Positions 1,254 to 17,507 of a stretch of 18,722 nt of DNA are shown piece by piece. The translations under genes were made by a program, and so were the position numbers. The notes below the pieces were generated by a model. The model worked only from the letters and a program-made list of their open reading frames with translations. It made no database searches and was not told where the DNA came from. Position 1 is the stretch's first letter, and each line of letters starts with the position of its first letter. Origin of the DNA: a virus (Duplodnaviria; Heunggongvirae; Uroviricota; Caudoviricetes); IMG/VR virus record IMGVR_UViG_2778261064_000025, one strand, 5' to 3'.

Positions 1254-1271
1254 TGGATATTACTCACTGAT

Positions 1272-1712: not shown

Positions 1713-1741
1713 TTGATCAGTGTATAAATGATATTTATCGC

Positions 1742-2764
1742 TCAATCGCTCCCTTTCCGCCCTTCAGCTACAGGGTCGTTGTCGGCGATAACAAAACCTA
1801 AGTCCTGAGAGAATCTCTCTCGTGGGAATCCTTTAGCAGGTAAACCCATTGAATCATATCCACATCCGGGAACATTTGGTTTAGAGTCAATAAGGTCTGC
1901 AATTTGCCGAAGCCATGTTGATCCCGGACCAAGTCGTTTAACTAAGTACCAGATAATACAGATCGCGCTAAAAATCCTCTCGCAACTCTCTGGATGGAGA
2001 TTAAGTCCGTCAAAGTATTCATTATCCGGTACTGGAACTCGGGGATGCTTTCTATTCCATATTCTGGAATGGTGAGCGCAACGATTCCTTATGAGATTAA
2101 GGCACTTCAACCATTTTGCAAATGTCTGCTTATTATCAATGCCAAAACGACGTATAATTTTCCCCTGCATATGACCATTAAGCATCGCATAATATTTAGA
2201 CATCTGACCAAAATCCCAGGTCTCCACCGCCACCCAAAATGGAATCTCCTTGCCTTGGCTTCGATGCCATTCAATACAGTCATCTCTGCTTTCGTCTAAT
2301 TTTACTTTTTGCTTATACACCCAATGCTCGAAGGCAGATGAGAATTTTGGATTAATGTATTTTGATGACATGTAGGCAAGTGGATCATTGCGACCAACCT
2401 CATGCGCGATGACTGAACGAACATGAATCTCTATTCTTTCGATAGCATCAATCATCAAAAGACGCAGTTTTTTGTCAAAAAGATATAGATCGTACGTCTT
2501 CTCGAAACTGGTACCAGCAAGAAATCGGTCTGTTCTGTACGAAAGACCTTTATCTGTTGTCGCAATAATTCTTGATGGGTACCAAAAACCTGACAATCGA
2601 TAATATCCAACCTGCAACAGCTTACGTATCGCACGATTTCGATCATTGATAATCATGCCACGTTCAAGTAGCAATCCTAGCAATTCGTGATAGTCCTTAT
2701 GAGGCTTTGCGGCAATCATAGTGGCAAAACAAAAGATAATAAAAGGCCCGACCGTGAAACTCAC
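1742..2764 (-). CDS. Abi_2 family (AbiD/AbiF-like) abortive-infection protein; start uncertain (GTG at 2764 or ATG at 2719)
   Basis: ORF track 340 aa. Contains KPHKDYHELLGLLLERGMII...YYRLSGFWYP and RNRCAHHSRIWNR, matching the Abi_2 family signature as I recall it. Size fits AbiD/F proteins. Confidence 0.7.
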   Translation of the reverse strand: MSFTVGPFIIFCFATMIAAKPHKDYHELLGLLLERGMIINDRNRAIRKLLQVGYYRLSGFWYPSRIIATTDKGLSYRTDRFLAGTSFEKTYDLYLFDKKLRLLMIDAIERIEIHVRSVIAHEVGRNDPLAYMSSKYINPKFSSAFEHWVYKQKVKLDESRDDCIEWHRSQGKEIPFWVAVETWDFGQMSKYYAMLNGHMQGKIIRRFGIDNKQTFAKWLKCLNLIRNRCAHHSRIWNRKHPRVPVPDNEYFDGLNLHPESCERIFSAICIIWYLVKRLGPGSTWLRQIADLIDSKPNVPGCGYDSMGLPAKGFPRERFSQDLGFVIADNDPVAEGRKGSD

Positions 2765-2828
2765 ATGCCTGAAATCGGCGGCGGAGAAACAGAGGATCGG
2801 GCTCGGTTGCCTGTAACTCTATCCGAAG

Positions 2829-2931
2829 TTATCCACATGTCAATGCACAGTTACTTAGGAAACTAACATAGGTACTATCACCACTCACGAAAAACCACTA
2901 TATGTGGTTTTTATTCATATCGTTATCCACT
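2829..2931. promoter_or_regulatory. Two DnaA-box-like 9-mers (TTATCCACA 2829-2837; TTATCCACT 2923-2931) flanking a hairpin AAAACCAC-tatat-GTGGTTTT (2893-2913)
   Basis: First 9-mer matches the DnaA-box consensus TTATCCACA exactly, second has one mismatch. The hairpin is followed by a T-run. All read from the sequence; function inferred. Confidence 0.3.
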
Positions 2932-3096
2932 ACAGGCTGTGTCAATAACTTTTACCTATTAATTGGGTAATTTCTACATTTTCCTATGCTGGCTAGTTTC
3001 TCTACTGAAAAGTTGGCACTCCTTAATCGCTTTTCGGTTAATACTATCGGTTTTCATATTGCCAGCAGCATACGCCATCCGATAATTTCTATGCTA

Positions 3097-3475
3097 CGCG
3101 CGCGTACTTGTCGCAAAATATCAGGCAAAGGCCAGATTCAGAAAGTCGTGATAACCACCAGCACAACATGAGAGGTCATGTAACGCGATTTATCACACCA
3201 GATACATGTGATTAGTGTACCCGCATAAAACATCGTCATAGCGCGTCCTGTGCGCATATACGCCGATAATCAACACATCACCACCACTCTGACTTATGTA
3301 GAGAACAGTTTTATGGTACTCCCCTCCATCGTGCGCGTACTGGTCGGACGTAGTTGCAAAATTTTTTGCAACTGATACCCCTCGCGCGCGTACTTGTCTC
3401 GAAATTGGTGTTTTGCTGTGGCAGTGATATCAGAAAAATCTTCCTGTTTCACATAAAGCGGATATGCGCGTACTG
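3097..3475. repeat. Four direct copies of GCGCGTACT (3100-3108, 3333-3341, 3386-3394, 3466-3474); copies 1 and 3 extend to ~20 nt (CGCGCGCGTACTTGTC.C.AAAT)
   Basis: Read from the sequence. The motif falls in different codon phases of the overlapping ORFs, so it is conserved at DNA level rather than protein level. Confidence 0.55.
3353..3372. repeat. 20-bp AT-rich palindrome GTTGCAAAA-TT-TTTTGCAAC
   Basis: Perfect inverted repeat read from the sequence, lying between repeat copies 2 and 3. Confidence 0.5.
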
Positions 3476-3589
3476 TAACGGCCCCATCAACTGGGAGCGG
3501 ATTTGAAATCCCGACCCAAGCTATGTACCAAATGCCATGTCTTGGATATATGATGATTGCCATTCTAAACAACGCTAAAGGGGGTTGGT

Positions 3590-4204
3590 GTGAGCAGAAA
3601 AGATACTAAAGAATTGCTAACTATCTGCATGGTGTACTTTTCAATTTATTTTTGTGCATACATGATAGTCCCAGATGAGTTTGAACATGGCAGTATTATT
3701 TATTCCATAACATTCTATTTTTTAGAGCTAACACCAATTTTGGCTATCCTTTTGGCAATACATATTTATTTTTCCTTAAAAAAAGAATCGACTAATTGGG
3801 AGAAGGTATGGAGAGACAGAGGATTTCTAACATCACCTAAAGATGATGCATATGAGAGTGATTTTTCTGACTTTATAACAAACTACTACTCCAGCGAACA
3901 ATTCAAAAATAGACTGTCTGATGTTTGGGAAACAGCAATGTATTCCATAGGGATTATATTATTGATACTTACTGGTATTGCTCAATATGTTTTTAACATT
4001 GACTTATCATTAAATCCTGAAAATTTAATATCGCCATTGATTTTTGGTGAGATATTGATCTTCTCATTCGGAATTTTCTTGAGTGTTGTTCTCTGCTCAT
4101 TATGCAAGCTACTGACTAACAGGTATCCAGGTGAAGCAAGGAGAGCAAGAAAGGCAAATCCATATTATCTTTTATTTCCTAATGGAGACAGCAGAGATAT
4201 CTAA
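3590..4204 (+). CDS. AT-rich multi-pass membrane protein (204 aa), unknown function
   Basis: ORF track. GTG start preceded by GGGGG about 6 nt upstream. Several hydrophobic helices (e.g. LLTICMVYFSIYFCAYMIV, LTPILAILLAIHIYF, AMYSIGIILLILTGIAQYVF, ILIFSFGIFLSVVLCSLC). Visibly lower GC than flanking genes. Convergent with the 701-aa gene. Confidence 0.6.
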   Translation: MSRKDTKELLTICMVYFSIYFCAYMIVPDEFEHGSIIYSITFYFLELTPILAILLAIHIYFSLKKESTNWEKVWRDRGFLTSPKDDAYESDFSDFITNYYSSEQFKNRLSDVWETAMYSIGIILLILTGIAQYVFNIDLSLNPENLISPLIFGEILIFSFGIFLSVVLCSLCKLLTNRYPGEARRARKANPYYLLFPNGDSRDI

Positions 4205-4223
4205 GCCATCCATGGCTAACCAG

Positions 4224-6329
4224 TTATTGAGCTTCTTTTTGTGATGCCTGTGCGACTCTGGTGAGCGATTGTGTGACCGTACTGATCGCTCTGTCATATG
4301 CTGTGCTACCTTTTGGCGTATTTGCCAGACGTAACAAGGCATTTCGTATAACAGGGCTTTCGTATGCCTTCGCTGCTCCGCCTACGGCACCAGCAGCAGG
4401 AACAACAAACGCAGCCGTTTTTAGCATCCCCGCTAATACTGCTGCGTTTATGATGCCACCACCAACTAACAAACCATAAAGCTGCTGACCATTTAAGTTT
4501 TGAACGTTCGCTTTTGCCGCGTGTCTTGTATCGTTGAGGTATTTAATAACGCCGTCCAGTTCCTTTCCATGTACGCCTTTAAAGAAAGTTGCTGATTGCT
4601 TCCTGTTCCGGTGTAACGCATTAATAAACTTCTCAACACTGATATTTCCAGACGGATCAGTCGCCTTATCTACAGCATTCTGAACTATGGCTGCTCGTGC
4701 GTTTTGCCTACCATTGTCATCCAGAAGCCTGTAAAGCTGAGAACGTTCTGATGGGTTTTGGCTAAAAACGAGTTTTGTTACATCCTCAGGCGTGGCCTTG
4801 CCGCTGGCTATTGCCTTTTGAACGCGCGTTCTTCCCATCATGTCATTAAATTTAGACCATGAGCGATCAACCCTTGCCATATTAATGGCTTCGTCTGCTC
4901 CAAGATTTTTGGCTACGGCTTTTTTCATATCCGCCGTATATGCCTTGTAGATAATATCGCTGGCTTTCTGGAGCGTATCTTTATCAACAGTGTCAGATGA
5001 CGCCATAAATCGCTTTCGAAGATCGGTTCTGTTTTCCCTCGCCAGACGCAGGTCATTTGGTCCGCTGGTGATATCGTCTTTAAATTGCTGCAAGACTTTT
5101 ACCGCGGCTCTATCCTGAGATTTGCCCGGGCGGCTTAACACGGCAATCTGATTGTCGATAGCTTTTACCGTGTTTGAGAGATCGACAGGGGTATCCCCCA
5201 TAGCGTCAATTATGCGGTTATATCGCTTTCCTGCTGCCTCAATGAATTTTTGTTGCCCTTTAGTCGCAGATTCATAAAGCTGTTTATCAGAAATGCCACC
5301 CAGACCATCGCTAAATGTTCTGACTAAATTTTCTCGTGCTTGTTGTTGATTCAGCCGATTCTTACCGGTTCCAAAAAAAGGAACTCTTTCGCCTAATGTC
5401 TGAGCCTGACTCTGCATAAAGGTTTTATCTTTTAGCATGTCACTGGTCATTAACGGCAGATTTCTTTCCGATGCAAAGTCGACAGCAGCCTTTGCTTCAG
5501 GCGACATATCACCACGAACAGCCCTCGAAACCGCACTCGCTGTATTTTCCAGCCCCTTACCAATACCACCAATGCCAGCAGAAATTACCGTTTGTAACGG
5601 ATCAATATCTTCTCCACCAGCAAGGCTAGTGGCTCCCTGTAGTGCTAAATCTGTAGCTGCTGATTTTCCTATGGCACCAAGCACCGTTCCAGCCCTGCCC
5701 GCTGGTGTAAACGCCAGCGCATTAGCCAGAAACGATGCCACGTCTTGCGGCGATAAACCCGGCTTGTTCAGAGCATAATCACCGGATGGCAGGGAAACGA
5801 TAGTGTTACCCTTCTCATCCTGCCTTAATTTCGCTCCCATGCTCTGAAGAATCTTTTCCTGAGATGCGTCAGAGCCGAAAAGTTGAGACCATCGAGCTTT
5901 TAGAGCATCCATGCTGAGTGAGGTTAACTCTGGGGCAAGGTCGACATTTTGCAGTCTCTCCATCTCTGGAGTCATTCGGCTTTCGCCTGTTATAGCATCG
6001 CGCATCGCAGCCCCAAGACTGGCTCCCTGTTCTGCTGAACGCTCAAGCCCCTCTCTTTGCTGAGTAGCTAACTTTGCATACCCTGACGCAAGAGAATTAT
6101 CAGATGATGTATGTTGAATATTTTGAGTTGCTGATTGGGATCGGTCTATTTCATTCGTTGATGGTAGTGGATAGGCAGCATAAAAAGCCTGCTTAGCCTG
6201 CTCTACACTTTCTCCGGCTTGCGGGGCCACGACTTCATTGAAGTATTGCTCCTGAGCCTGCGCTTTTTGTTCTGGTGCTAACGCCTGATACTGTGGAGAG
6301 GCGATAACATCTTTCCATGCTTTAGCCAT
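4224..6329 (-). CDS. Putative DNA-ejection (injection) protein, P22 gp16-like by size and position (701 aa)
   Basis: ORF track. Last gene of a four-gene translationally coupled operon (TAATG overlap at 6329). Ala/Gln-rich with a Gly-rich hydrophobic segment near the C-terminus (LYGLLVGGGIINAAVLAGML...). Assignment is by analogy to the P22 14-7-20-16 order; no search run. Confidence 0.5.
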   Translation of the reverse strand: MAKAWKDVIASPQYQALAPEQKAQAQEQYFNEVVAPQAGESVEQAKQAFYAAYPLPSTNEIDRSQSATQNIQHTSSDNSLASGYAKLATQQREGLERSAEQGASLGAAMRDAITGESRMTPEMERLQNVDLAPELTSLSMDALKARWSQLFGSDASQEKILQSMGAKLRQDEKGNTIVSLPSGDYALNKPGLSPQDVASFLANALAFTPAGRAGTVLGAIGKSAATDLALQGATSLAGGEDIDPLQTVISAGIGGIGKGLENTASAVSRAVRGDMSPEAKAAVDFASERNLPLMTSDMLKDKTFMQSQAQTLGERVPFFGTGKNRLNQQQARENLVRTFSDGLGGISDKQLYESATKGQQKFIEAAGKRYNRIIDAMGDTPVDLSNTVKAIDNQIAVLSRPGKSQDRAAVKVLQQFKDDITSGPNDLRLARENRTDLRKRFMASSDTVDKDTLQKASDIIYKAYTADMKKAVAKNLGADEAINMARVDRSWSKFNDMMGRTRVQKAIASGKATPEDVTKLVFSQNPSERSQLYRLLDDNGRQNARAAIVQNAVDKATDPSGNISVEKFINALHRNRKQSATFFKGVHGKELDGVIKYLNDTRHAAKANVQNLNGQQLYGLLVGGGIINAAVLAGMLKTAAFVVPAAGAVGGAAKAYESPVIRNALLRLANTPKGSTAYDRAISTVTQSLTRVAQASQKEAQ

Positions 6330-7750
6330 TAATCACCCCATAGTGAAGAAAAGTTACTGCTGGCTGCTGGCTGTGATACCTGCTCAGATTGCGGCAATGT
6401 CTGCGACGAAGAAGAAGTTCCTCTGTCAACTGCTGAAATAACCCGCAAAGCATCATAAGCTCGACCAGAAGCAGCTTTCAGCGAATTGAACTGGTTTTCC
6501 ATCTTCCGGCGCTTGGTATCAATGGTTTTTGTGGAATCACCAGGCTGAGGGAAATACATTTGATAATATTTGGACATTTCAGCTGGTACGATGGCTGCCC
6601 CTGTTTCCTGACGGAGTATTGCCATTATTGCGTCATTAGCATTAACAACGTATTGCTGTTCTGTTGGGCTGAGCGTTAAGTTAGCCAGCGTCCCATTACC
6701 CAAAGCATTATTAATGATCGCCACTCGCTGTGGGCTAAGCTGGTCTTTCAGTGTATCTATTGAATCAAGAGCATCCCTAACCCTGTATGCAAATCCAGCA
6801 GCTTTTTTAGCCCCTTCTGGCGACTTTTCCATGATCTTTTGGGCTGTTGGCAAAGCTATTGGACGAAACCCATCTCCAGATATTGGCTGGTTTAGTTTTC
6901 CCTGCTCTTCACTTCCGTCTGTGTAGTATTTTGTGACAGTGCCATCATCGTTTTCTCTAACACTCATTAATTTTTTGGCGTTTGTATTAATTCCAGCCGC
7001 TGCCGCAAATGCCGCCGCCCCCTCTGGATCCGCCTTTAACATTTGAGCGTACTGATTGTAATTCTGCATTGCTGCTGTTGGTGCATATGCTGACGTTAAC
7101 GCATTTGCTCGGCTAATATCCTGCCCTCTCGCCTGAAGTGCTTCGCCAGCCTGATTGCTGCGGATTGTTTCTGCCAACTTGCCACGCTCAATATCCCGAC
7201 CTTCCATTTGATCTTTGATATCGAAATACTTCTCATGACCGAGAGAAAACAGTGCCATACTACCAGCAAGCCGCTGGAACCCCTGTGGATCATTAACATG
7301 CATTTCGGCAACAGACTCAGGAGAAATTCCCAAGCGACGCATTTCATCTTCGTTATCTGCTATGAATTTTCCAAATGCCCCAGTTCCGAGCGAAGATGCG
7401 ATTTGAGCACTAGTCGCAAGATGACCAATAGAATTTCTCTGGTCGTCATCAATAAAGCCCATCCCTTTCTGAACGCTTTCAAATTCTTCTGGATACTCAG
7501 AAATAAGACTGCGCATTTTGTTTCTGTCTCCAGACTCAAAAGCCCCGGCATATGCTTTCTGAAACTCTGCTTTACGCTGTTGTTGACGTGCCGGCTGATT
7601 AATCTCAGCAACGCCTCTTAGCCCCTGTAGCGCCATTAAACCTACGTTTGGCTGCTGCTGATACTGCACAGGCTGAGGAACGGAAGAACGAGGAGCATTA
7701 TCATTTTGCGGTGCCATGCTAGGCAGCCCGCCAAGTTGCCATGTCGCCAT
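6329..7750 (-). CDS. Putative DNA-ejection protein, P22 gp20-like by size and position (473 aa)
   Basis: ORF track. TAATG start/stop overlaps at both ends. 473 aa compared with ~471 aa for P22 gp20 as I recall it. Gln-rich N-terminus. Confidence 0.5.
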   Translation of the reverse strand: MATWQLGGLPSMAPQNDNAPRSSVPQPVQYQQQPNVGLMALQGLRGVAEINQPARQQQRKAEFQKAYAGAFESGDRNKMRSLISEYPEEFESVQKGMGFIDDDQRNSIGHLATSAQIASSLGTGAFGKFIADNEDEMRRLGISPESVAEMHVNDPQGFQRLAGSMALFSLGHEKYFDIKDQMEGRDIERGKLAETIRSNQAGEALQARGQDISRANALTSAYAPTAAMQNYNQYAQMLKADPEGAAAFAAAAGINTNAKKLMSVRENDDGTVTKYYTDGSEEQGKLNQPISGDGFRPIALPTAQKIMEKSPEGAKKAAGFAYRVRDALDSIDTLKDQLSPQRVAIINNALGNGTLANLTLSPTEQQYVVNANDAIMAILRQETGAAIVPAEMSKYYQMYFPQPGDSTKTIDTKRRKMENQFNSLKAASGRAYDALRVISAVDRGTSSSSQTLPQSEQVSQPAASSNFSSLWGD

Positions 7751-8427
7751 TAGAATCCAAGCCCCCCAACAAGACCAATAAGCCCACCACCAATAGCGCC
7801 GGCCGCAGTTCCTATTCCAGGAACAACGGAACCAAGTTGCGCACCCGCTAAAGCGCCTGATGCTGCCCCACCAATACCACGCGCAAGACTGGATGGCTGC
7901 TGCGCCTGACCTGCACGAATAGCGCCAAGCCCCTGCAAGAGTTGTCCGGTATTATTGGCGTAGTTTTGCCCTGCCGTTGCCTGCCCTGATGCCGCATTCA
8001 TCCCGACATTTAGCAGGTTTCCATAATTTTGCATTTGCCCACTAAGCCAATTGTTATAAAGCATGGGCGCAATGGAAGATAACTGGTTACTGGTAGCTGT
8101 TGAGCCAAGCCCCCCGGTAGCTTCTGCTGAGACAAGGTTCTGATAACGGGCCTGATCTGCCTGTGTTTTATATAAACCAGAACCAAAGAAATCATTCGCG
8201 GCTTTATTCTGCCCTTCCAGAGTCATCAGTCCTTGTAGTTGTTGTAAAGCAGGCAATCCGACTTCTGCATACGGCTTGAGATTATTCATCACCGTATTCC
8301 ACTGCTCGCGCTGCAAATCAATTGCCTGCTGCTGGGCCTTCGCCTGAGCTTTAGAGGCACCACCATCACCGCCTTTTTCGTATACGGCACGATTGAGATG
8401 TTTATGAGCTATATGGGTAATTAACAT
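7750..8427 (-). CDS. Putative DNA-ejection protein, P22 gp7-like (225 aa)
   Basis: ORF track. N-terminal ...NRAVYEKGGDGGASKAQAKAQ resembles the P22 gp7 leader region (...PEKGGKGG...) as I recall it. C-terminal Gly-rich hydrophobic tail GIGTAAGAIGGGLIGLVGGLGF. 225 aa compared with 229 aa for gp7. Confidence 0.55.
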   Translation of the reverse strand: MLITHIAHKHLNRAVYEKGGDGGASKAQAKAQQQAIDLQREQWNTVMNNLKPYAEVGLPALQQLQGLMTLEGQNKAANDFFGSGLYKTQADQARYQNLVSAEATGGLGSTATSNQLSSIAPMLYNNWLSGQMQNYGNLLNVGMNAASGQATAGQNYANNTGQLLQGLGAIRAGQAQQPSSLARGIGGAASGALAGAQLGSVVPGIGTAAGAIGGGLIGLVGGLGF

Positions 8428-8882
8428 TCGCTGAATTCCTTATATTGTTGCCGAGTTAACTGATAAAGCGTTACGCCGACGGGTTTACCACATCTGATAT
8501 AAGCATCATCAAGGTGACCAACACGGGTAGCGCCAAGCAAACGGATAATTGCCCGTCCGTATTTCGTGGTGTCAGGAACCATAGTGATGCTGTTAAGGAA
8601 TGGTGAGTTTTCGAGAAGCCATTTGCAGAATAATCGATGTCCTTGCAGTGCATATTCACCACGGAATCCGGGGTCGTACACCGCATGGCATTCAACAACG
8701 CTATGCCAGAAGTTACGCACTTCATGAACGCCAGCCAGCACTAATCCTTCGTAGATGCCGAGATATACCGCATCAGGCTTGATGTAGTACGTGTGCCCCG
8801 GCTCAACAATATTTTCGGTATTGCCTGGCTCGTTAAGAAAGGCCTGTAATCGCACAGGGTTATCAATAAATTTTAGTTCCAT
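8421..8882 (-). CDS. Hypothetical protein (153 aa), position and size consistent with P22 gp14-like / DUF2824-type protein
   Basis: ORF track. First large gene of the operon; its stop overlaps the start of the next gene (ATGTTAA). Family assignment is from memory only. Confidence 0.45.
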   Translation of the reverse strand: MELKFIDNPVRLQAFLNEPGNTENIVEPGHTYYIKPDAVYLGIYEGLVLAGVHEVRNFWHSVVECHAVYDPGFRGEYALQGHRLFCKWLLENSPFLNSITMVPDTTKYGRAIIRLLGATRVGHLDDAYIRCGKPVGVTLYQLTRQQYKEFSEC

Positions 8883-8898
8883 GCGATGCCATCCATTT

Positions 8899-9060
8899 TC
8901 ACATACAGCCTGCCAGCGCCTTATCTATTAACCCTCGTGCAATTTCATGCAGAGTTGGCGCTACTCCAATTCCTGATTTTTTACGCTGCTCTTCCTGAAT
9001 TTTCTTTATCGCTTCCATTTGCTTCTCACTTATCAATACCGGCTTTACTGAAATAGCCAT
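8899..9060 (-). CDS. Small ORF (53 aa) MAISVKPVLISEKQMEAIKKIQEEQRKKSGIGVAPTLHEIARGLIDKALAGCM, possible small DNA-binding protein
   Basis: Hand-translated; below the 60-aa cutoff of the ORF track. ATG at 9058-9060 on the minus strand, preceded by GGGGG (plus-strand CCCCC 9065-9069). Ends 16 nt before the 153-aa gene. Confidence 0.45.
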   Translation of the reverse strand: MAISVKPVLISEKQMEAIKKIQEEQRKKSGIGVAPTLHEIARGLIDKALAGCM

Positions 9061-9073
9061 AACGCCCCCTTAG

Positions 9074-9099
9074 AACTGTATAAAACAACAGTTATTATA
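9074..9099 (-). promoter_or_regulatory. LexA-box-like CTGT-ATAAAACA-ACAG (9076-9091) immediately downstream of a perfect minus-strand -10 TATAAT (9094-9099)
   Basis: Read from the sequence. Matches the CTGT-N8-ACAG SOS-box pattern with an AT-rich spacer. The -35 is weak (TGAATA-like), so the promoter call is tentative. Confidence 0.4.
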
Positions 9100-9155
9100 G
9101 TTTCACAAATCGCAATATTCATCATCGTAATTGCAAAATATGAAACAAATAGCAC

Positions 9156-9187
9156 AAAAAAATGCCACCGCTCAGTAGCTGGTGGCA
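9156..9187 (-). terminator. Rho-independent terminator on the minus strand (stem TGCCACC/GGTGGCA with inner GCT/AGC pairs, followed by a 7-nt U-run)
   Basis: Plus-strand 9156-9187 reads AAAAAAA-TGCCACC-GCTCAGTAGCT-GGTGGCA. On the minus strand this is a hairpin followed by TTTTTTT. Lies downstream of the primase gene and iteron array, upstream of the 9094-9099 promoter. Confidence 0.55.
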
Positions 9188-9508
9188 TCGTTCTGTGTGT
9201 CAGGTTTTGACAGGTTTTTTATGGACTCTAAAAACTATATTTATGGTGTCGCATTACTCTTCACGGCAGGCGCTTTTCAGTTCTGCCCTTGCTTCTGGCT
9301 CCATTGGTAATTTGATTCGCGATCAGCTATGCGGATGGTTTGCTGAACAGGCATAACAACTTCTCAGAGGCTGTTTTCTGAACTACGAAAATTTCGTAGT
9401 GCTCACTTTCAAAAACGTCACGCCCTTGTACACAGGATTTTACGAAAGTCTCGTAAAACACTCTCTGATGCCAGCCAGGTGTTGTGCGCATCAATTCAGT
9501 CACATTGT

Positions 9509-9619
9509 GTTGGTTCAAAATACCGTGTTGTTGGTTCAGTGTTGGTTCAATAAAAAGAATAAAATCCTTATAAAACAATACTCTTTACAAATTGAACCAA
9601 CTGAACCAACTGAACCAAC
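9509..9619. repeat. Iteron array R: GTTGGTTCA at 9509, 9530, 9541 plus TGAACCAAC x3 in tandem (9593-9619); mirror image of array L
   Basis: Counted directly in the sequence. Immediately downstream of the primase-helicase stop (9645). Confidence 0.75.
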
Positions 9620-9644
9620 ACCTTTTCTACGCACATGAAGAAGC

Positions 9645-12404
9645 TCATTCTTCAGATGAGTTATAATCTCCTGGCTGGTAATTGAGTACATAAACGTTTA
9701 TTTGTCGTCCCTGAATACGTGGTGATTTTCTTTGGTATCCACGACCGCTGTTTGGTGGGGTTAGCATCCCGGCTTTTTTCAACACTTCAGCAAACTGTTT
9801 TGCGTTGAAACCACATGCGATCTCCTTTTCAAATGTGGCCGGGAATGTGTAGAAAATCATTGGGCTTTCGTCATGTTCTCCACGCTGACGGTATCCGGCT
9901 AAATCTTTGATGGGCAAATCTGCCGGGCTGTATGGAAATGGTGCAAAACGGCTAAGCCCATAGGCATTAAGAAATGCCTCCGTTTGTTCAATAATCTGCT
10001 GATGCTCTTTGTTACCTGTGCCGAACTCGCGCAACCATGCGTTATAGCTGTGCTGTATCGCATCACGGCATGTCTGAGCATCCCAGCCTGTTACAACCTC
10101 GCCTAACAACAATGCGGCCTCCAGAATGGCAAATCGCGCGGCTACACGGTGAACCTGCTCACCATAATCGGATGGGATCAGGCTTCTCCATCTGCTTTCG
10201 CAGTCGCGAACGGTTTTAATAGCCTGTTGCTGGTGGTCTGCCAGCCATTTAATCCACTCACGCCCGGACGCGCCGTGGTGATGCTGGTAAGCGTCTTTCA
10301 GTGCGTCTGCGTGCTGTTTTCCGTTCTGGTAATCGTGAAAGCGTACTGCTTTACTCAACGGAATATTCAGCAGTCGCACCAGTTGCCCGGCTTTGGTTTT
10401 TCGCCCGGAAGTAGCGATAAATGTTTCTAAATCCATTTCTCCGGTGCTGATTGCCACTGTACGCCAGCGTTTTAGATCCCGGTTTCCACCATCTTTAGCG
10501 CCTTGCAGTTTCCCTACACCGTTAAATAACGCATAGGCAGACTGTGAAACGCTGACAGGATCAGCGCCCTGACCAACTTCATCAAGCGGCATTAGTCCGT
10601 CATTGTGGGCGGCGGCCTCATTTGCCAGCCCCAGCGCGGTTCCGTACCACGTCAGCCGCAGTAAATCAGGGTTGCCGTATAAGCTGCTCGCCACGTTTGC
10701 CGTGGTGGTCTTACCTGCGCTCGACTGCTCATAGAAATGAATGCCGAACCCGTCAGCGCCCACCAGCCCAATCAATGGCGCTGCCAGTGCTGCGCCGATC
10801 CCGGTCATCATTGAATAGTTACCAAAGGCCAGACGCGCCACGTTATCACGCCAGCTTTTCGCGCTCCCTGAGACGGTATATCCGGCTGCGGCTGAGCTTC
10901 TCCCGCTGAACAGCACAGGATTTTCAGGTGTTCCGATGATTTCCCCATCAGGCATGATGTACGCTCCGCATTGCCAGCCAGTGGCATGAGCAACACGCCA
11001 CAATTCACGAGAGCCACTGCGTTGTAGCCAGTCTGCCAGTATTGCTCTGAGGCTGCTTTTGGTCGTGACATTTACCCCACCAGCTTTAAGTGTGCGCCAT
11101 CCTTCACGTTCACCAATATCAGCCAGTGGAATGGCAGCGGTTGTCGGCGTTTCAGAACCAAACGACAGCCAGCGAAGAATGAGATACTGGTCTTTATCGT
11201 CTCTGCCAGTACCGATAACGCTTAACGGAGAACATAACCAGCTTTCGTTATTGATGATTTCTCCACTCTGGCTGTCAGCTCTCGGAGATACCCAATAAAT
11301 ACCATCCTCGCGGCTTTCTATTCTTGGTTTCAGTGGGTCGGTATCCATAACCTTAAAATCGCTTCCCTCAATGGTCTGTGGCTCCTGTTTCACGCCATTA
11401 CCCTGTGGTTGGTACATTGACTTATTGAACGCTTCTGTGGCGCATTTAATGCCGTGTTTTTGGTGGTAATCATTCCAGTCTGCTTTGTGATCTGTCGGGG
11501 GTAATGCCACCCATCCAGAAACAGATAAAGCTGCTTTTTCTGCTGCTATTCTCCCCGTGTTTTGTCTTCCTTCGCTGTGGTCGTTATCCGCAGCAATGAT
11601 GATTTGTGCTGAAGGAAATTTATCCCGCAGTACCTGGGCGACATATAACAGGTTCCCGGCATCAATCGCCGCCACTGTCAGCGCCTCTGGACGAATTAAA
11701 TGGGCAGATAATGCCGTTGCCAGCCCTTCTGCGATTAAGATGCTCTGTGTTGTTTCTGGTGCGTTTATGGCGTGATATGCCCCCCGCTTTGCTGAACCTG
11801 TCAGGAGTCTTTTTTCACCATGTGAGGTAATAGTCTGTGCTGCTGTGACTGCGCCGGATTTATCCACCAGCGCCAGCAACAGAGATCCATCGGGCAACAC
11901 GGGGAATGTAAAATCACCTACCCCTTTCGCAACCAGATAATCAGATTTGCCGTTTACAGCCTTTCTGCGCATGTCATCAAACTGACGGGAAAACGTATCC
12001 CGTCTTTGTTGTTCGTCCTTCTCTGCCCTTTTCAGGCGCTCCTGTTCGCGTCGCTGGCGCTCGGTTTCCAGTTGTTCCCGTTTCTGGCTGGTGGCTTCTG
12101 GTGTTTCCGTTGTCCGGTAATCAATACCCAGAACATCAGCGGCAAGAAGCGCCGCCTCTGTTGTGTCGCAGTTATTTACGCGTTTAATTAAATCCAGCCC
12201 ATCACCAGCGCCGCACTGATTACAGATGAAGCTACCGCGCCCGTTGTCATCGAACCGGAATCGATCTTTGCCCCCACATGCAGGGCAGGGAGCATGACGG
12301 CGCGGAGAGTCAGGGACATTTATGTTCAGGCAGCCCAGCACATGAGGCCAGTTGTTTTCAGACGCACTGATAACCTGACGGATAAGATCAATGTTTCGCA
12401 TCAC
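9645..12404 (-). CDS. Primase-helicase, P4 alpha-like (zinc-binding primase N-terminus + TOPRIM + P-loop NTPase), 919 aa
   Basis: ORF track. N-terminal CPACGG...FICNQCGAG zinc-finger pairs, TOPRIM-like ILIAEGLATALS ... IIIAADNDHSEG, Walker-A-like SSAGKTT in the C-terminal half. Domain order typical of P4 alpha / D5-type island primases. Confidence 0.85.
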   Translation of the reverse strand: MMRNIDLIRQVISASENNWPHVLGCLNINVPDSPRRHAPCPACGGKDRFRFDDNGRGSFICNQCGAGDGLDLIKRVNNCDTTEAALLAADVLGIDYRTTETPEATSQKREQLETERQRREQERLKRAEKDEQQRRDTFSRQFDDMRRKAVNGKSDYLVAKGVGDFTFPVLPDGSLLLALVDKSGAVTAAQTITSHGEKRLLTGSAKRGAYHAINAPETTQSILIAEGLATALSAHLIRPEALTVAAIDAGNLLYVAQVLRDKFPSAQIIIAADNDHSEGRQNTGRIAAEKAALSVSGWVALPPTDHKADWNDYHQKHGIKCATEAFNKSMYQPQGNGVKQEPQTIEGSDFKVMDTDPLKPRIESREDGIYWVSPRADSQSGEIINNESWLCSPLSVIGTGRDDKDQYLILRWLSFGSETPTTAAIPLADIGEREGWRTLKAGGVNVTTKSSLRAILADWLQRSGSRELWRVAHATGWQCGAYIMPDGEIIGTPENPVLFSGRSSAAAGYTVSGSAKSWRDNVARLAFGNYSMMTGIGAALAAPLIGLVGADGFGIHFYEQSSAGKTTTANVASSLYGNPDLLRLTWYGTALGLANEAAAHNDGLMPLDEVGQGADPVSVSQSAYALFNGVGKLQGAKDGGNRDLKRWRTVAISTGEMDLETFIATSGRKTKAGQLVRLLNIPLSKAVRFHDYQNGKQHADALKDAYQHHHGASGREWIKWLADHQQQAIKTVRDCESRWRSLIPSDYGEQVHRVAARFAILEAALLLGEVVTGWDAQTCRDAIQHSYNAWLREFGTGNKEHQQIIEQTEAFLNAYGLSRFAPFPYSPADLPIKDLAGYRQRGEHDESPMIFYTFPATFEKEIACGFNAKQFAEVLKKAGMLTPPNSGRGYQRKSPRIQGRQINVYVLNYQPGDYNSSEE

Positions 12405-12759
12405 CGTACCCCACGTGGTCTATAGCGTTTGCGATATGGCTAACCAGCATCTGCCACTTGGTTATTCCGTAATCAGTCAGCATGCCATCATTGTTTAGCC
12501 ACATATCAAATTCAGCGGTTGTCGCAAGTTTCCACTTATCGCCGTGGACAGTCCTCATTGCTGGGTACATGAATGCGCAAATCAGATCACAAACATCTGA
12601 CGGCTTCAGAGATGTAGTAATGGTGCGTCCCTCTGGCGTCTGAATTGCCATTTTCTCTTCACCAGTAGAATGAAGGTTATGAATCCACACAGCACCAGCA
12701 ATCTTTGCCACCTGCTCTCCGATTGCGGAGCTAAGCGCCATTTCTGCATTTTCACGCAT
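12388..12759 (-). CDS. Hypothetical protein (123 aa)
   Basis: ORF track. ATG at 12757-12759 preceded by GGGAGG. 8-nt overlap with the upstream gene's stop; its own stop overlaps the primase start. Confidence 0.55.
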   Translation of the reverse strand: MRENAEMALSSAIGEQVAKIAGAVWIHNLHSTGEEKMAIQTPEGRTITTSLKPSDVCDLICAFMYPAMRTVHGDKWKLATTAEFDMWLNNDGMLTDYGITKWQMLVSHIANAIDHVGYGDAKH

Positions 12760-13093
12760 GAGAACCTCCCGCTACAGTTGCGCCCATGTCATTAACCATG
12801 CTTTGCCATATCTCACGCCCGACGTCAGTCAATCCGTCCTTAGTGACGCAACGCTCAAGAAGCTCGATCCCCACGGTTTCCCACTGCGGGTAGAACACTT
12901 TCATGGCTGCCAGTGTGTAGCTATCGATCAGGCTGCGAACGCCTTTTACTCCATTGACGATTTCCACACGTACGGCCTCGCCGTCCGCATCAACCATGAA
13001 ATAGTCCCCGCCGCTGGTGGAGGTAATGTGGTTATACAGTGCCGACGCATACTTATTTGCCAGCGCATTCAGTCGGAAATTTTTAGTAATCAT
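12752..13093 (-). CDS. Hypothetical protein (113 aa)
   Basis: ORF track. ATG at 13091-13093 with an upstream GAGG/GGAG; packed in the overlapping small-gene operon. Confidence 0.55.
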   Translation of the reverse strand: MITKNFRLNALANKYASALYNHITSTSGGDYFMVDADGEAVRVEIVNGVKGVRSLIDSYTLAAMKVFYPQWETVGIELLERCVTKDGLTDVGREIWQSMVNDMGATVAGGSHA

Positions 13094-13103
13094 GGCTCCA
13101 TCC

Positions 13104-13706
13104 TCAGTGCGTCACTGGTTCCGCTGGCATGCCGTTTTCATTCAGTTCAGCTATAAAGCTGTTGTGAAGTTCAGCAAGCGTTTCACGACCAAATGGAGTC
13201 AGTGCTCCTTGTTCCACATCCATCATGGCTCTGTAGAAAATGATGGCGCGTTCTGTGCCAGACTCGATGCCAAAACGTTCTATCATCGCGCCCTCAATGT
13301 TGTTTGCCATAGCGAGGCGCTCTGCTACTGGATACAGCGGCATGGCGACGATGCCGTTGGAATAAACAGCCACTTCGGAAGGATTGCCAGTATCATCAAT
13401 GATGCTGACAGTGCCGTTTTCCTCTCTCATTTCCAGCATGAATACTGTTGCGATCAGCCATCTCCACATAATGACGTTATGCTGTGATGTGTAATCGAAA
13501 TATCCCTGGTTGCCGCCATCGGCTATAGCGAGATGTATTGACATGCCTTCATCTGGTTTATCGTCATAATCCCCGGCATCCAGACGATTTACGGCATCAA
13601 TATATGAGACGGTCTCAACGCGTTCTGTCATGCCATCGTTGCTGCGGTGCATGATGTTTACGCCGTCAGGCGTTGCTTCTGCATGGAAAGTTAAGAAATT
13701 ATTCAT
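13104..13706 (-). CDS. Hypothetical protein (~200 aa from ATG 13704-13706; ORF track extends to 13811)
   Basis: The internal ATG at 13704-13706 is preceded by AGGCGAGG and overlaps the upstream gene's stop by 8 nt, matching the coupling pattern of its neighbours. The longer 235-aa reading is possible. Confidence 0.5.
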   Translation of the reverse strand: MNNFLTFHAEATPDGVNIMHRSNDGMTERVETVSYIDAVNRLDAGDYDDKPDEGMSIHLAIADGGNQGYFDYTSQHNVIMWRWLIATVFMLEMREENGTVSIIDDTGNPSEVAVYSNGIVAMPLYPVAERLAMANNIEGAMIERFGIESGTERAIIFYRAMMDVEQGALTPFGRETLAELHNSFIAELNENGMPAEPVTH

Positions 13707-13920
13707 GTTTCGCCTCGCCTGAATGATTCTGTAACTCATATTTGCCCAACAATTCGTCTGCTTCCTGAATAGCTTCTGGTACGCCATTGAGCAGTGACAT
13801 AACCGCGCCAATCATTAACTTGTCTCTGTTGCTGGGGCTGGCCCCTTCAAGCCAGAACCCTAAAACAGTCTGAACCTGTTCGATGCGACATTGCGCTTCA
13901 ATGAGCTGGATGTTGGTCAT
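13699..13920 (-). CDS. Hypothetical small protein (73 aa)
   Basis: ORF track. ATGA start/stop overlap with the upstream gene at 13917-13920. Confidence 0.5.
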   Translation of the reverse strand: MTNIQLIEAQCRIEQVQTVLGFWLEGASPSNRDKLMIGAVMSLLNGVPEAIQEADELLGKYELQNHSGEAKHE

Positions 13921-14180
13921 TTCGCACTCTCCGCATCGATTAAACTGATATCTATCAGAGAGGTAACTTTTTGTAGCCAGCTAGTGATTACTGTCGCCTG
14001 TTCCCCTCCCACCGATGGAAGAATCTCATTCATCACATGAACCAGACCTGTGCGCGCTCTGGTAAGCCGTTCAGTCGTGCGATCTGCAAGAGTGAATGTG
14101 TCTGGATATGGCTCTTCACGGCTCAGCAATGATTCAATTTCCAGCTCACACGGATGACGATAAATTAAGTTGATATTCAT
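13917..14180 (-). CDS. Hypothetical small protein (87 aa)
   Basis: ORF track. ATG at 14178-14180 preceded by GGGGG; ATGA overlap with the upstream gene. Confidence 0.55.
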   Translation of the reverse strand: MNINLIYRHPCELEIESLLSREEPYPDTFTLADRTTERLTRARTGLVHVMNEILPSVGGEQATVITSWLQKVTSLIDISLIDAESAK

Positions 14181-14371
14181 TTTTCACCCCCAAGAATTAC
14201 CAGCTCTGCACGGGCATCGTTAACCAAAGATGAGTACGCTTTAATCGCATCCACGACATCAGTAGCGTCCATTTCTTCAGCCGAAAGACTGACAGCAACC
14301 AGGACAGCCGCTGCTTGCTCGATTAATTGAAGTGCGGACGTAAGGCGAGGGGTATTAATTGAGTTATTCAT
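14177..14371 (-). CDS. Hypothetical small protein (64 aa)
   Basis: ORF track. ATG at 14369-14371 preceded by GGGGG; 8-nt overlap with the upstream ORF's stop. Confidence 0.55.
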   Translation of the reverse strand: MNNSINTPRLTSALQLIEQAAAVLVAVSLSAEEMDATDVVDAIKAYSSLVNDARAELVILGGEK

Positions 14372-15431
14372 TGGTTTCCCCCGTTTTTACTGGCATTTCG
14401 CCACCTTCCAGCAGGAAATGAACGTCACGAACGGCGAGATCCAATATCGCGAGTAACGCCTTCAGTCTTTCGTCTCGTGAGGGAGAGTTGCTCACCAGAA
14501 TGTCGTTAATCACTTCTGTCAGTGTGATGATCTGGCTTGTGCGTTCGAGGGGATCCATATGCACATCGTAGGTTTTAATCATGTGCCACCTCCATGCGGA
14601 TACGACCAGCAAAAAAGCAGACGTGATCGCGCACCAGAGAACGGCGAGCATCGCGTTCAGACTCGGCAGCAATATGATGAATTTTGGCGGTAATTGTCGG
14701 GCAATCGCGGCGAACTGCGGCGATAATCCAGATAAATTGCGGTTTTTGGGTAGGGGTAGTAGCCAGCATGTGGCAGCCTCCATTCGATAGCATGTAACGC
14801 TACCACCGGAAACGCCAATTTCGCTGGTGGTAGCCCAGACAGGGTTGGCGTAACCGGCTCGAATGGATACCGGCGCTTCCGAAGAAGCCCCTGCCTGAGC
14901 CACCATTGATTGACAAAGGCGCTGGATTATACACCAACGCCCAAAAAATGGGTGAGTCAGACCTACGACATAAAAAAAGACGCTCGGCGCGTCATATGTC
15001 GCCATTCGATTTACCAGGACGCCAATCCCGGCACCCGTTTTATGAGGTGCCTTATAACCATAAACCGTGTTGCCGCATAACGGCAAGCTCTTTTTTATGG
15101 ACTCCGAAAACTCACTATTGGAAGAACCAGAAGCACAGTACATCGCGCTCATTTCGTTAACGTCACGCGCGTGGACGAAGGTTTTTGTGGAGTCACTACG
15201 CGAGCAGAGAAAGCCATCTACGACCAGAAATTCTCTGGCGCAGCCGCTGACCTTCTCAACGCTAACACCATCGACCGTAATTTCTGACATAGTTAAGGCA
15301 TCCGCTCCTACCACCAGCAAATGATAAACTTTGCTTGTATCTGCTGTATTAATGCCTGACTTTGCTGTCATATTGCTGGATTTTGGCGACATACCAGCCA
15401 GTGAAAATGTCTTCTTCTGGGCGGTTAGCAT
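14364..15431 (-). CDS. Long ORF (355 codons), hypothetical; may instead be two genes, with a separate 72-aa product starting at ATG 14580-14582
   Basis: Continuous stop-free frame of 1068 nt. Start at 15429-15431 preceded by GGAGG and overlapping the DUF4222-like stop (ATGCTAA). A second in-frame ATG at 14580-14582 has its own GGAGG 6-7 nt upstream. The middle section translates to unconvincing sequence. Confidence 0.35.
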
Positions 15432-15607
15432 TTGTTAACCTCCGCGAACTCCTTCATGAAACGTGCCAGCGGTTGTACGCATGGCGATTGATACCCGTCG
15501 CGATAAAACGTCACTCGGTTGTGAGACACGCTTTCGACAGTAACGAGTGCTCCGTGGGCATCTTTGTAGCGTTTTTGAGGTTGTGGTGTTCCTGTCGGCT
15601 TAAACAT
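15425..15607 (-). CDS. Small conserved prophage protein, DUF4222-like (60 aa from ATG 15605-15607; ORF track extends to 15694)
   Basis: ATG at 15605-15607 immediately follows the upstream stop (15600-15602) and is preceded by GGAGG. Sequence MFKPTGTPQPQKRYKDAHGALVTVESVSHNRVTFYRDGYQSPCVQPLARF fits my recollection of the DUF4222 pattern. Confidence 0.5.
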   Translation of the reverse strand: MFKPTGTPQPQKRYKDAHGALVTVESVSHNRVTFYRDGYQSPCVQPLARFMKEFAEVNKC

Positions 15608-16433
15608 GGACCGCCTCCAGACGCTTAGCGAGCCAGCGTTGCGACAGGCGGGTGAGTTCTCCTTTGCGCTGCTCATATTCCATGCCCATATCAATTAACG
15701 TGATATTGGTGCTTTCGAGATATGAGAGGTGCTCAAGCTGTTCTGCGTTCATATGGTCGCGAGGTTCGCCAGAATAGCCATTTATCCGCGCCCACTGCTT
15801 AGCAGTTAGCCCACCAAGAACGATACGAGAAATCATATTGATCTCGTTTGTGTAGTGGTGTTGCTGCGTCGTTTTCCCCATCTCGGCACGGGCCATATTC
15901 AGCGCATCGCACATTGGCTTAAAGTTGTTTGCGGCACTGATACGGGCTTTTAGCTGGCGACGATAGCGGGCGGCGATTTCAGGCACGCTACGCTGTAATT
16001 CTTCCTCGCACTGGATGAAATAACGGCGGATAGCGCGCCCCTGATCATTGCGTTCGATCATTGCCAGTTCTTTCGCCATTCCGACACTTAACAGATAGTC
16101 TTTGCCGGGTCTTCCAGACTGCTTAATCTTGCTGTAAGCCGCGCCATTCGGGATTTTCCCCAAATTTGGGGAAATAGTTTTATGGACTGAGTAATCGTGC
16201 CCAATGGTGAAGTCATATTCAGAGATGCGATCAGTGATCCATGTAGAGAAGTCTTTTCCCACGCCCAACGCTTTGTGTAACGCTTTTGCGCTAACAATAT
16301 TGGTTTCACGCCCACCGATATGACCAGGAATAACCGGGACAATTGCGGCAAATTCATTACCGTTAATTGTGCCCAGAGAGGCGTTCAGATGAGGGGCAGC
16401 CTCAGAAATTAATCTGCTTTTTTCGATGTTCAT
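15600..16433 (-). CDS. Phage antirepressor-like protein (AntA/AntB-type domain), 277 aa
   Basis: ORF track. Segments NIVSAKALHKALGVGKDFSTWITDRISEYDF and DYLLSVGMAKELAMIERNDQGRAIRRYFIQCEEEL match antirepressor AntA/KilA-type domains as I recall them. Confidence 0.6.
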   Translation of the reverse strand: MNIEKSRLISEAAPHLNASLGTINGNEFAAIVPVIPGHIGGRETNIVSAKALHKALGVGKDFSTWITDRISEYDFTIGHDYSVHKTISPNLGKIPNGAAYSKIKQSGRPGKDYLLSVGMAKELAMIERNDQGRAIRRYFIQCEEELQRSVPEIAARYRRQLKARISAANNFKPMCDALNMARAEMGKTTQQHHYTNEINMISRIVLGGLTAKQWARINGYSGEPRDHMNAEQLEHLSYLESTNITLIDMGMEYEQRKGELTRLSQRWLAKRLEAVHV

Positions 16434-16445
16434 TTTCAGTCTCCG

Positions 16446-16877
16446 TTAGGCGGCGTTAAACGCGTCCGGGTAGAGTTTCAGAATGTCGGCAATTTCCTGC
16501 TGAGAAAGTCCGTTGTGATCATTTATGTTCGCAAGATGGTTAATATGAGTGATCACTTTCAGAACATCACCACGGCAGGAGAAACGGTAGCGAAGGTGTG
16601 TTCCGATACCATCAGGATTCTTTTCGTCGATACGCTCCAGAGTGATTCCGAGCTGGCGTTCTAACTCTGTTGCATAGTTACGACCAGAAGACAGACGGCA
16701 GTAGCGAAGAATGTCATTTTCTGTCCATCCCTCTATACCAGTACGCAGCATATAGACTCGGGCACGATGCTTTTTCGGCGTGCGCTTTGGTGCTTGAAGG
16801 GATTTTGTCAGGGGCGTAACATCAGATACGCGAATATCTGAATTAGCCGCCTGTAATGGGCGGTTTTTCTTTTCCAT
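16446..16877 (-). CDS. Hypothetical protein (143 aa), basic N-terminus
   Basis: ORF track. Start overlaps the AlpA stop by 1 nt (coupled). No family recognised. Confidence 0.55.
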   Translation of the reverse strand: MEKKNRPLQAANSDIRVSDVTPLTKSLQAPKRTPKKHRARVYMLRTGIEGWTENDILRYCRLSSGRNYATELERQLGITLERIDEKNPDGIGTHLRYRFSCRGDVLKVITHINHLANINDHNGLSQQEIADILKLYPDAFNAA

Positions 16878-17080
16878 CAGGCCACCTCGTCTCTAGATTC
16901 TAATATACACTTCTCAATCCATTCATCTATTTCAGACTCAACAAAAGCAATTGCCCGACTTCCAATTTTTACCTGTTTAGGGAACCTCCCCTGACTAATA
17001 AGACGATAAATCCATGCTTTGCTATAACCAGTTCGCCTTTGAACTTCAGAGAGACGAATTAATGAATTGTAATTAGCCAT
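16877..17080 (-). CDS. alpA: AlpA-family phage transcriptional regulator / excisionase-like DNA-binding protein (67 aa)
   Basis: ORF track. Pattern ...RTGYSKAWIYRLISQGRFPKQVKIGSRAIAFVESEIDEWI matches the AlpA/Xis-type HTH family. Sits one gene away from the P4-type integrase, as is typical. Confidence 0.8.
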   Translation of the reverse strand: MANYNSLIRLSEVQRRTGYSKAWIYRLISQGRFPKQVKIGSRAIAFVESEIDEWIEKCILESRDEVA

Positions 17081-17165
17081 TTATTAATATCCTGTACTAA
17101 TGACGCAATAACCCCCTCCTGCAACGAATGGCGAGAGTTTTATTTGCGTCAAATGTCGAATACGC

Positions 17166-17202
17166 CAAAGACCACAATATGAAAAACATATTGCGGTCTT
17201 TT
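17166..17202. promoter_or_regulatory. Inverted repeat / hairpin CAAAGACCACAATATG-aaaaa-CATATTGCGGTCTTTT in the int-alpA intergenic region
   Basis: About 15-bp arms with one mismatch, followed by TTTT on the plus strand. Could be a plus-strand terminator or a protein-binding site. Confidence 0.3.
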
Positions 17203-17507
17203 ATAAAAGATAGTCAGATTGTTTTGGTTTGTTTGCTCCACAAGGGTAGAGCTACCCTGCATTTCGGCAGGATCACGCTATTAGGCGTGACATCCAGTAG
17301 TTTTAAAGAACAATTGCGCTTTGTCAGCGCCAAAGCCTGTTAAAGAACATTCCGCTTTTCAGCAGCGTAGAAGGCTCAATACACCTTCGTTTATAAAAGA
17401 GCGATTGCCCTTCTCCAGGGCTAACTGTTAAATAGCAATCCTCTGTGAGTTTTTATCAATCTACTCCCCTATACTTTAGTAAACCTCTGTATACTTGTCC
17501 AGTTGTT

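Follow-up and report, generated by a model that had tools for sequence, protein, structure and literature searches.

The origins of SaPIs and Gram-negative PICIs are a closer precedent for the repeat arrays described here than the ori/crr pair of P4, to which a preliminary description of this DNA had compared them. In Gram-negative PICIs, the origin is found downstream of pri, and its AT-rich region is always flanked by two sets of iterons (PMC6092414). SaPI origins have 6–12 iterons directly behind rep, divided equally between the two sides of an AT-rich centre and pointing in opposite directions; these iterons are bound by a winged helix in the CTD of the self-loading Rep helicase (PMC9371898). 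In published descriptions, such origins consist of one iteron/AT-rich unit following pri-rep, whereas the family analysed here usually doubles this unit head-to-head, and the copies can be separated by 1–10 kb with accessory (late or defence) genes between them, even in the experimentally mobile EcCIMP1. For this island, excision, circularisation and transduction by the P22-like phage Kapi1 have been reported (PMC11773190). A term search of that paper found no iterons and no 'ori' in the sense of a replication origin, and neither a full-text term search nor the examined passages of the PICI literature (PMC6092414, PMC9371898, PMC11773190, PMC10111431) contained a mention of the doubling or the split. 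The arrays are a known kind of element, the PICI origin, in a new arrangement, and not a new kind of system.

The window analysed here, the whole stretch of 18,722 nucleotides, is a Gram-negative PICI of the EcCIMP1 type, ~18.5 kb long. It is inserted at the tRNA-Thr gene thrW, between proA and the pao/yagU region. A tyrosine integrase is located at one end of the island (domains at 17508–18722), with thrW 165 bp beyond the integrase in locus L001. Phage_AlpA is found at 16877–17080, and AntA, Ash and the primase are all on the minus strand, in a co-oriented operon ending in pri-rep. The gene set of the island comprises integrase, AlpA, AntA, Ash, Pri-Rep and PerC plus small ORFs, and it shares the int-alpA-...-pri backbone of the EcCICFT073 island, as given in PMC6092414. 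Positions 7590–18722 align with the EcCIMP1 island in E. coli MP1 at 98.2% identity over 11.1 kb, and at least 80% of the window was found in 123 of 5,426 complete E. coli genomes. In a phage collection, matches to the window were confined to the ejection genes and an att/int fragment, and the array region returned essentially no match apart from a weak one to a Klebsiella phage.

Compared with EcCIMP1 (Pick, Stadel and Raivio 2025; PMC11773190), the island belongs to the same family and has the same integration site, primase, ejection genes and perC. The core is 98% identical, and EcCIMP1 carries both arrays in the same split form, 8.5 kb apart. The two islands differ in their distal accessory genes, the window having Abi_2, a SieA-like ORF and another gp16-like variant. 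At the left boundary of the island, positions 87–382 contain an integrase C-terminal fragment and an att-like sequence, ~91% identical to the int/attP end of the thrW-integrating lambdoid phages HK542, mEp043 and mEp213; this fragment was probably left behind by an element that previously occupied the att site. Rfam C4 antisense RNA (79.5 bits) and isrK (67.1 bits) match at 14823–15050 on the minus strand, inside the called ash ORF, in a layout resembling the P4-type CI/seqA immunity RNAs that PMC10111431 describes for some Gram-negative PICIs.

The preliminary description had placed two arrays of a 9-mer at 9509–9619 and 1049–1169, and an exact-match search reproduced all coordinates and copies. 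The window contains twelve exact copies of GTTGGTTCA, six in array A (starts 1049, 1058 and 1067 on the plus strand; 1119, 1140 and 1161 on the minus strand) and six in array B (starts 9509, 9530 and 9541 on the plus strand; 9593, 9602 and 9611 on the minus strand), and a search of the whole window found no further exact copy outside the arrays. The chance expectation is ~0.14 exact copies. With up to one mismatch allowed, 20 matches were found, versus 4.3 ± 2.2 in shuffled sequences, and none of 200 shuffles reached 20. Both arrays share one build: three copies abut each other, and beyond a 43-bp spacer three further copies follow at intervals on the opposite strand. The A+T content of the spacer is 79% in A and 84% in B, versus 53% for the window, and the spaced copies are separated by 21 + 21 bp in A and 11 + 21 bp in B.

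That the two arrays form a large inverted pair 8.4 kb apart also held. The plus strand of A aligns with the minus strand of B, with outer arms of 55 nt (1042–1096 and 9572–9626) that are 95% complementary and inner arms of 38 nt (1114–1151 and 9506–9543) that are 82% complementary. Domain searches agreed with the cargo proposed earlier to lie between them (an ejection-like operon, a membrane protein, an Abi gene and a small DNA-binding gene). The features of this region are as follows.

725–1012, minus strand: perC-family gene whose transcription points away from the tandem side of A, start codon 37 bp from the nearest iteron
1042–1174, plus strand: putative origin unit A, an inverted copy of B (repeat anatomy)
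1175–9505, no strand: accessory module enclosed by the units (domain searches), variable in content among relatives
1272–1712, plus strand: orf146, 146 aa, with an RHH-like N-terminus (domain searches)
1742–2764, minus strand: Abi_2 gene (domain searches)
3590–4204, plus strand: weakly SieA-like ORF (domain searches)
4224–6329, minus strand: gp16-like gene with a transglycosylase region, P22-type ejection (domain searches)
6329–7750, minus strand: gp20, P22-type ejection (domain searches)
7750–8427, minus strand: gp7, P22-type ejection (domain searches)
8421–8882, minus strand: gp14-like gene, DUF2824, P22-type ejection (domain searches)
9506–9626, minus strand: putative origin unit B (repeat anatomy; layout as in the PICI/SaPI origins of PMC6092414 and PMC9371898)
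9509–9549, plus strand: three spaced GTTGGTTCA copies of B at 9509, 9530 and 9541 (exact matches)
9550–9592, no strand: AT-rich spacer of B, 84% A+T, presumed DNA-unwinding element by analogy with SaPI/PICI origins
9593–9619, minus strand: tandem block of B, three abutting GTTGGTTCA copies, 26 bp downstream of the primase stop

With 4224–8882 (minus strand), the PICI carries a complete P22-type DNA-ejection gene set, which matches the P22-like helper Kapi1, and positions 8394–8789 are ~91% identical to this phage.

Read in the direction of the primase gene, unit B consists of the tandem iterons (9619–9593), the spacer (9592–9550) and the spaced iterons in opposite orientation (9549–9509), and 26 bp separate it from the primase stop codon (9645–9647). 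Unit A has the same parts, with tandem iterons at 1049–1075, a spacer at 1076–1118 and oppositely oriented spaced iterons at 1119, 1140 and 1161. Its location, 8.4 kb from the primase gene, is flanked by the start codons of perC (1012) and orf146 (1272). Folding of single-stranded DNA indicated a possible hairpin in each unit (z = −7.1 and −4.1), a trivial consequence of the inversion of the iterons within the unit. A remnant of a second primase gene beside A was considered and rejected, as the similarity between A and B stops ~7 nt past the tandem block.

The gene upstream of unit B encodes a primase-helicase fusion with the following coordinates.

9645–12404, minus strand: Pri-Rep fusion protein, 919 aa (Pfam, BLASTP, PDB sequence matches, AF2 and Foldseek)
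9684–9794, minus strand: predicted recognition helix and wing, residues 871–907 (FAEVLKKAGML...RGYQRKSPRI...INVYVL), whose sequence tracks the iteron type

Pri-Rep comprises a Zn-ribbon and TOPRIM primase (residues ~8–340), a DUF927 helicase (residues 366–644, Pfam) and a C-terminal domain (residues ~720–919). Residues 8–340 share 33% identity with the primase domain of P4 alpha (BLASTP), and homology to alpha is limited to this N-terminal domain. Residues 403–814 match PDB 8TCH ('Pathogenicity island protein', E = 1e-11) and also PDB 5DGK, the SCCmec Cch helicase; by sequence homology, the DUF927 helicase is of the SaPI Rep/Cch type. An AF2 model of residues 720–919 (pLDDT 87.5) predicts a helical and winged-helix-like C-terminal domain. 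Foldseek matched this model to the C-terminal part of Cch (5DGK) with a probability of 1.00, and its last ~100 residues, with a probability of 0.97, to the wHTH protein TcpK on oriT DNA.

By its sequence, array B has the canonical layout of a PICI/SaPI origin: it lies directly after pri-rep, carries 3 + 3 iterons around an AT-rich spacer and is associated with an initiator of the DUF927/Cch type. Array A shows the same iteron/AT-rich layout but is not immediately downstream of pri-rep. In the account of the EcCICFT073 pri-rep-ori region (Fillol-Salom et al. 2018, PMC6092414), the origin is likewise directly 3' of pri(-rep), with two iteron sets and an AT-rich region; here, however, the unit is doubled and inverted, and its copies are parted by a whole accessory module. 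The descriptions of SaPI Rep and SCCmec Cch (PMC9371898; 5DGK, 8TCH) show a similar combination of a DUF927-type helicase with a C-terminal DNA-binding domain, and those of the SaPI origin show iterons just after the rep ORF, with the halves flanking an AT-rich centre in opposite directions (PMC9371898). The fusion of primase and helicase is also found in SaPI5 PriRep. Unlike SaPIs, which have penta- or hexamer iterons, the island has 9-mers, its primase is P4-alpha-like (Zn-ribbon plus TOPRIM), its unit is duplicated and split, and its host belongs to the Enterobacterales. The arrays are likely to be inverted duplicate origin units of the PICI/SaPI type, read by the C-terminus of Pri-Rep and split by an accessory module.

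Relatives were collected by a primase scan with one genome per species, which gave 60 usable loci across Enterobacterales. About 28 of these species-level loci are compact, 11 are split, and about 21 are without a partner unit in the available flank (up to 10 kb, and <6 kb in 5 of these ~21); a second unit is present in ~39 of the 60. Among these loci, the units are 120–700 bp apart in the compact ones and 1–9 kb apart in the split ones; overall, the measured distances were 118–375 bp between the tandem blocks of compact forms and 1.1–10.5 kb in split forms. An IMG/VR sample contained 26 compact loci and 4 split by 7.4–10.5 kb; this sample was picked by the iteron itself, so that conservation estimates drawn from it are biased. 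In the compact form, the primase gene is followed by a tandem block, an AT-rich spacer, spaced iterons, an interval of ~60–90 bp, spaced iterons, an AT-rich spacer and a tandem block, and the tandem blocks are outermost in every two-unit relative. The family typically carries two units head-to-head directly after pri-rep, with the tandem blocks outside. By comparison, the layout of the window is this double origin with an accessory module between its inner (spaced-iteron) sides.

Three gene orders were seen, namely pri-B-A-perC-cargo, pri-B-cargo-A-perC (the window and EcCIMP1) and pri-B-perC-cargo-A, and PerC homologues adjoin the distal origin unit in many relatives. Comparison of homologous islands, suggested at the outset as a check on cargo variation, revealed that the genes between the arrays differ widely. 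Split units enclose 86 protein families in 15 loci, which fits the earlier suggestion of an exchangeable cargo module. The sole recurring family between the units is the RHH-like orf146 (7 of 15 split loci, beside the distal unit). In many genera, a member of the orf146 family is the marker of the distal accessory end. This arrangement points to where PICI accessory modules are exchanged, and it bears on the spread of defence and virulence cargo.

Inverted repeats of ~120 bp that bracket variable cargo might also be the ends of an invertible or transposable cassette, that is, an inversion switch or a TIR-bounded element. We consider this exceedingly improbable, since the repeats are adjacent and without cargo in ~28 of the 60 relatives and the ORFs scanned include no invertase, resolvase or transposase. 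A chimeric query representing the inverted junction found no record with at least 80% coverage in the 5,426 complete E. coli genomes, and inspection of the outer ends revealed no target-site duplication. Both a site-specific invertible segment, for which an inverted isomer and an invertase or resolvase domain were looked for, and a transposon-like cassette, for which transposase or invertase domains and a target-site duplication at the outer ends were looked for, were rejected on these grounds.

The arrangements in relatives also bear on the comparison with P4, in which one array would be the origin, the other a crr-like cis enhancer, and Pri-Rep would loop out the cargo, both arrays being needed. 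In the P4 record (NC_001609), crr lies directly 3' of alpha and consists of a pair of direct 120-bp repeats, each holding five type-1 octamers, and ori, which also has type-1 octamers, is 4.7 kb away with a different layout that includes type-2 repeats. The window resembles P4 in having one short repeat clustered at two separate places, immediately downstream of the primase-helicase gene and kilobases away from it, as well as in its homologous primase domain and the C4/isrK immunity RNAs of the island, and the cognate iteron is present in both arrays of all two-array relatives. However, the helicase and origin-binding parts of Pri-Rep are not homologous to those of alpha, and each site already has the full PICI origin layout, the two being inverted copies of one complete unit and not direct crr repeats plus a different ori. 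The P4 octamer TGTTCACC is absent from the window by sequence search. An obligatory distant partner in cis is argued against by the ~21 of 60 relatives without a partner within up to 10 kb (with the five short flanks noted above) and by the ~28 with adjacent units. The analogy with P4 ori/crr, as judged from these sequences, holds for position only: the location of the arrays and the homology of the primase stood, the helicase, the DNA-binding parts and the layout of the units did not, and the need for a distant partner found no support in the relatives. Filing the arrays as a P4-type ori/crr pair is wrong: the helicase is not of the alpha type, the units are inverted and complete, and those of many relatives are adjacent or, within the flank covered, single. 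A bipartite system of the P4 kind is therefore quite unlikely.

The repeats found after the primase stop in the 60 loci fall into discrete types: GTTGGTTCA, GTTGTCTCA, GTCGGTTCA, (A/G)(C/T)GGGTTAY, ACTTATCCC and a few others. Across these loci, a motif in the C-terminus of Pri-Rep matches the iteron type one-to-one. RG[YF]QRKSPR[IV] accompanies GTTGGTTCA in 45 of 45 loci (44 relatives and the window), and RGYQGRV-RE accompanies GTTGTCTCA in five of five. KGVTRK[ST]LRI goes with GTCGGTTCA, one locus of this type having RGYQRKTPRI; DR[LY]K[KR]KAL goes with the GGGTTAY types (GRYKKKAL in L116), and GK[NG]WQIRTPRLKH with ACTTATCCC. Where the iteron differs, divergence of Pri-Rep is concentrated in the last ~80 residues. 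In L092, which has a different iteron, identity is 98% at residues 551–650 and 27% at residues 881–919. In L098, overall identity is ~60%, yet it is 71–80% in the last ~80 residues, and the iteron is still GTTGGTTCA. The second array, wherever it is present with its Pri-Rep, has the iteron type of the first array (all types in the compact form), and in the split Citrobacter locus L125 two ACTTRTCCC units of the same type lie 7.9 kb apart.

Given the match between C-terminal motif and iteron in 60 relatives, with the cognate iteron in both arrays, the 9-mers are very probably binding sites of Pri-Rep, in line with the original assignment of the repeats to the primase-helicase. The match constitutes a testable recognition code, in which the iteron can be predicted from a short motif in the initiator C-terminus (for example, QRKSPRI for GTTGGTTCA and QGRV-RE for GTTGTCTCA), and such a code could help to predict incompatibility or cross-replication of co-resident satellites. 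Two neighbouring genes were rejected as the source of the specificity. The unit on the perC side tracks the primase and not perC, carrying the iteron that matches the primase C-terminus (GTTGTCTCA in L070, L073, L074 and L080), and a perC-specific operator was dismissed on this basis; the position of perC itself varies in relatives, beside B, beside A or after both units. The orf146 product was dismissed as a binder of the 9-mers because its gene has palindromic operator-like sequences of its own at 1223–1249 and occurs without an adjoining array, being located ~8 kb from the origin in L027 and L064. The orf146 protein begins with the RHH-like motif MSKSNLVAFRIPSELQDEF..., and the palindromic operator-like sequences TATAACAGTGTTATA and ACAGTGGTATACTGT lie upstream of its gene, within 1223–1252.

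In some islands, a unit is found without its cognate protein. In the E. coli islands L003 and L144, the N-terminal 340 aa of the replicase are 86% identical to the window primase and the C-terminal part is DUF5906, as identified by domain search.

L003, 1518–4040: hybrid DUF5906 replicase
L144, 2203–4730: hybrid DUF5906 replicase

Both islands have their own, different iteron unit (CCTGTACCACCTATACC type) after the replicase gene and have kept an orphan GTTGGTTCA unit beside perC, with one of the six iterons mutated in each. L002 is a degraded island without a primase, in which six iterons are intact and the spacers have diverged. These orphan units indicate that unit A can persist without its cognate protein, and they seem to leave room for a control role toward perC and orf146, or just for recent module exchange. 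They also favour, together with the mutated iteron in each DUF5906 case, the view of unit A as a functionless relic of module shuffling, whose intactness would reflect only recent ancestry. This is very improbable, as the second unit tracks the specificity of the primase over at least five iteron types in many genera, its iterons stay exact while the spacers diverge, and it is retained in about two thirds of the species-level loci (~39/60).

In iteron plasmids, additional clusters of iterons exert negative control. Unit A could in the same way be mainly a control element, which would titrate or handcuff Pri-Rep to limit copy number, or Pri-Rep bound at its tandem iterons could regulate the outward perC promoter and the divergent orf146 promoter. 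The unit overlaps the divergent perC/orf146 control region and may thus have a regulatory role beside that of an origin or in its place. Its tandem iterons end 37 bp from the perC start codon with a TATAAT-like element between, and relatives with other iteron types also have an outward 'TTTTGCTTATCTATA'-like flank behind the distal unit. On the other hand, a sigma-70 consensus scan found no promoter in 900–1400, and such scans around both arrays gave no match. Moreover, unit A has the full structure of B including the AT-rich spacer, and the units are equivalent mirror images in compact relatives, which makes a mainly regulatory role unlikely.

The reading of the arrays as duplicate origin units suggests the following course of events, in which Pri-Rep binding, melting of the spacer, firing of one or both units and any cooperation between them are deduced from sequence, covariation and homology. 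After helper induction, Pri-Rep would use its C-terminal winged-helix-like domain to bind the GTTGGTTCA iterons of either unit and presumably self-load as hexamers on both sides of the AT-rich spacer. It would then melt the spacer and prime with its N-terminal TOPRIM domain. With the 8.4-kb accessory module between the units, B would stay at the primase stop and A would end up beside perC. Either unit is probably sufficient for replication, as about one third of the relatives show only one, and the range of distances between units, from 118 bp to ~10 kb, suggests no need for close phasing. The doubling may raise the efficiency of firing or give redundancy, and the inverted orientation would guard the cargo against deletion by recombination between the repeats. 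Together with the flanking core genes, the units are likely homology anchors for swaps of accessory modules between islands.

A more elaborate form of the duplicate-origin reading, which we regard as doubtful, has Pri-Rep pairing the inverted units across the module, through looping or cis-handcuffing. Replication would thereby be tied to copy control and to the expression of the enclosed and adjacent genes, perC and orf146 among them, and the units, as recombination anchors, would turn the accessory region into an exchangeable cassette. More speculative still, by analogy with the yeast 2-micron plasmid, recombination between the inverted units during replication might flip one fork and generate concatemers for headful packaging by a P22-like helper.

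Several further observations concern the origin units and their surroundings. In L096 from Yersinia pekkanenii (8154–14214), the compact double origin is present three times in direct order, and the primase match spans 3.9 kb versus the usual ~2.75 kb. An HNH-domain protein (P0093) from the same species was found among homologues of the primase C-terminal domain, and L096 may represent a duplication associated with a homing endonuclease. Origin units of several iteron types have a (T)TCTGGCTGG / CTGGCTG(G) motif at their inner edge; sites of the TCTGGCTGG motif in the window are 9472–9478 (minus strand), 1206–1212 (plus strand) and 9671–9677 (plus strand). Many relatives have CTGGCTG(G) between +150 and +190, counted from the primase stop, often with its complement where the primase ORF ends. 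Several split junctions lack the motif, and other parts of the window contain it frequently.

Other short repeats are located in the accessory module and near the ash gene. A repeated CGCGCGCGTACTTGTC motif is present upstream of the SieA-like ORF (3097–3119 and 3309–3405, direct repeats D3 and D11) and also beside the distal origin unit of a Serratia island (L123). Palindromes of the type TACGAAA...TTTCGTA at 9380–9460 resemble operator sites. Two short sequences downstream of unit B (9215–9441), TTTTTTATGGACTC(T/C)(A/G)AAAACT and TTTC...AACGTCACGC..., recur in the ash/C4 region (15091–15186), and these repeats could be shared regulator sites of the two operons.
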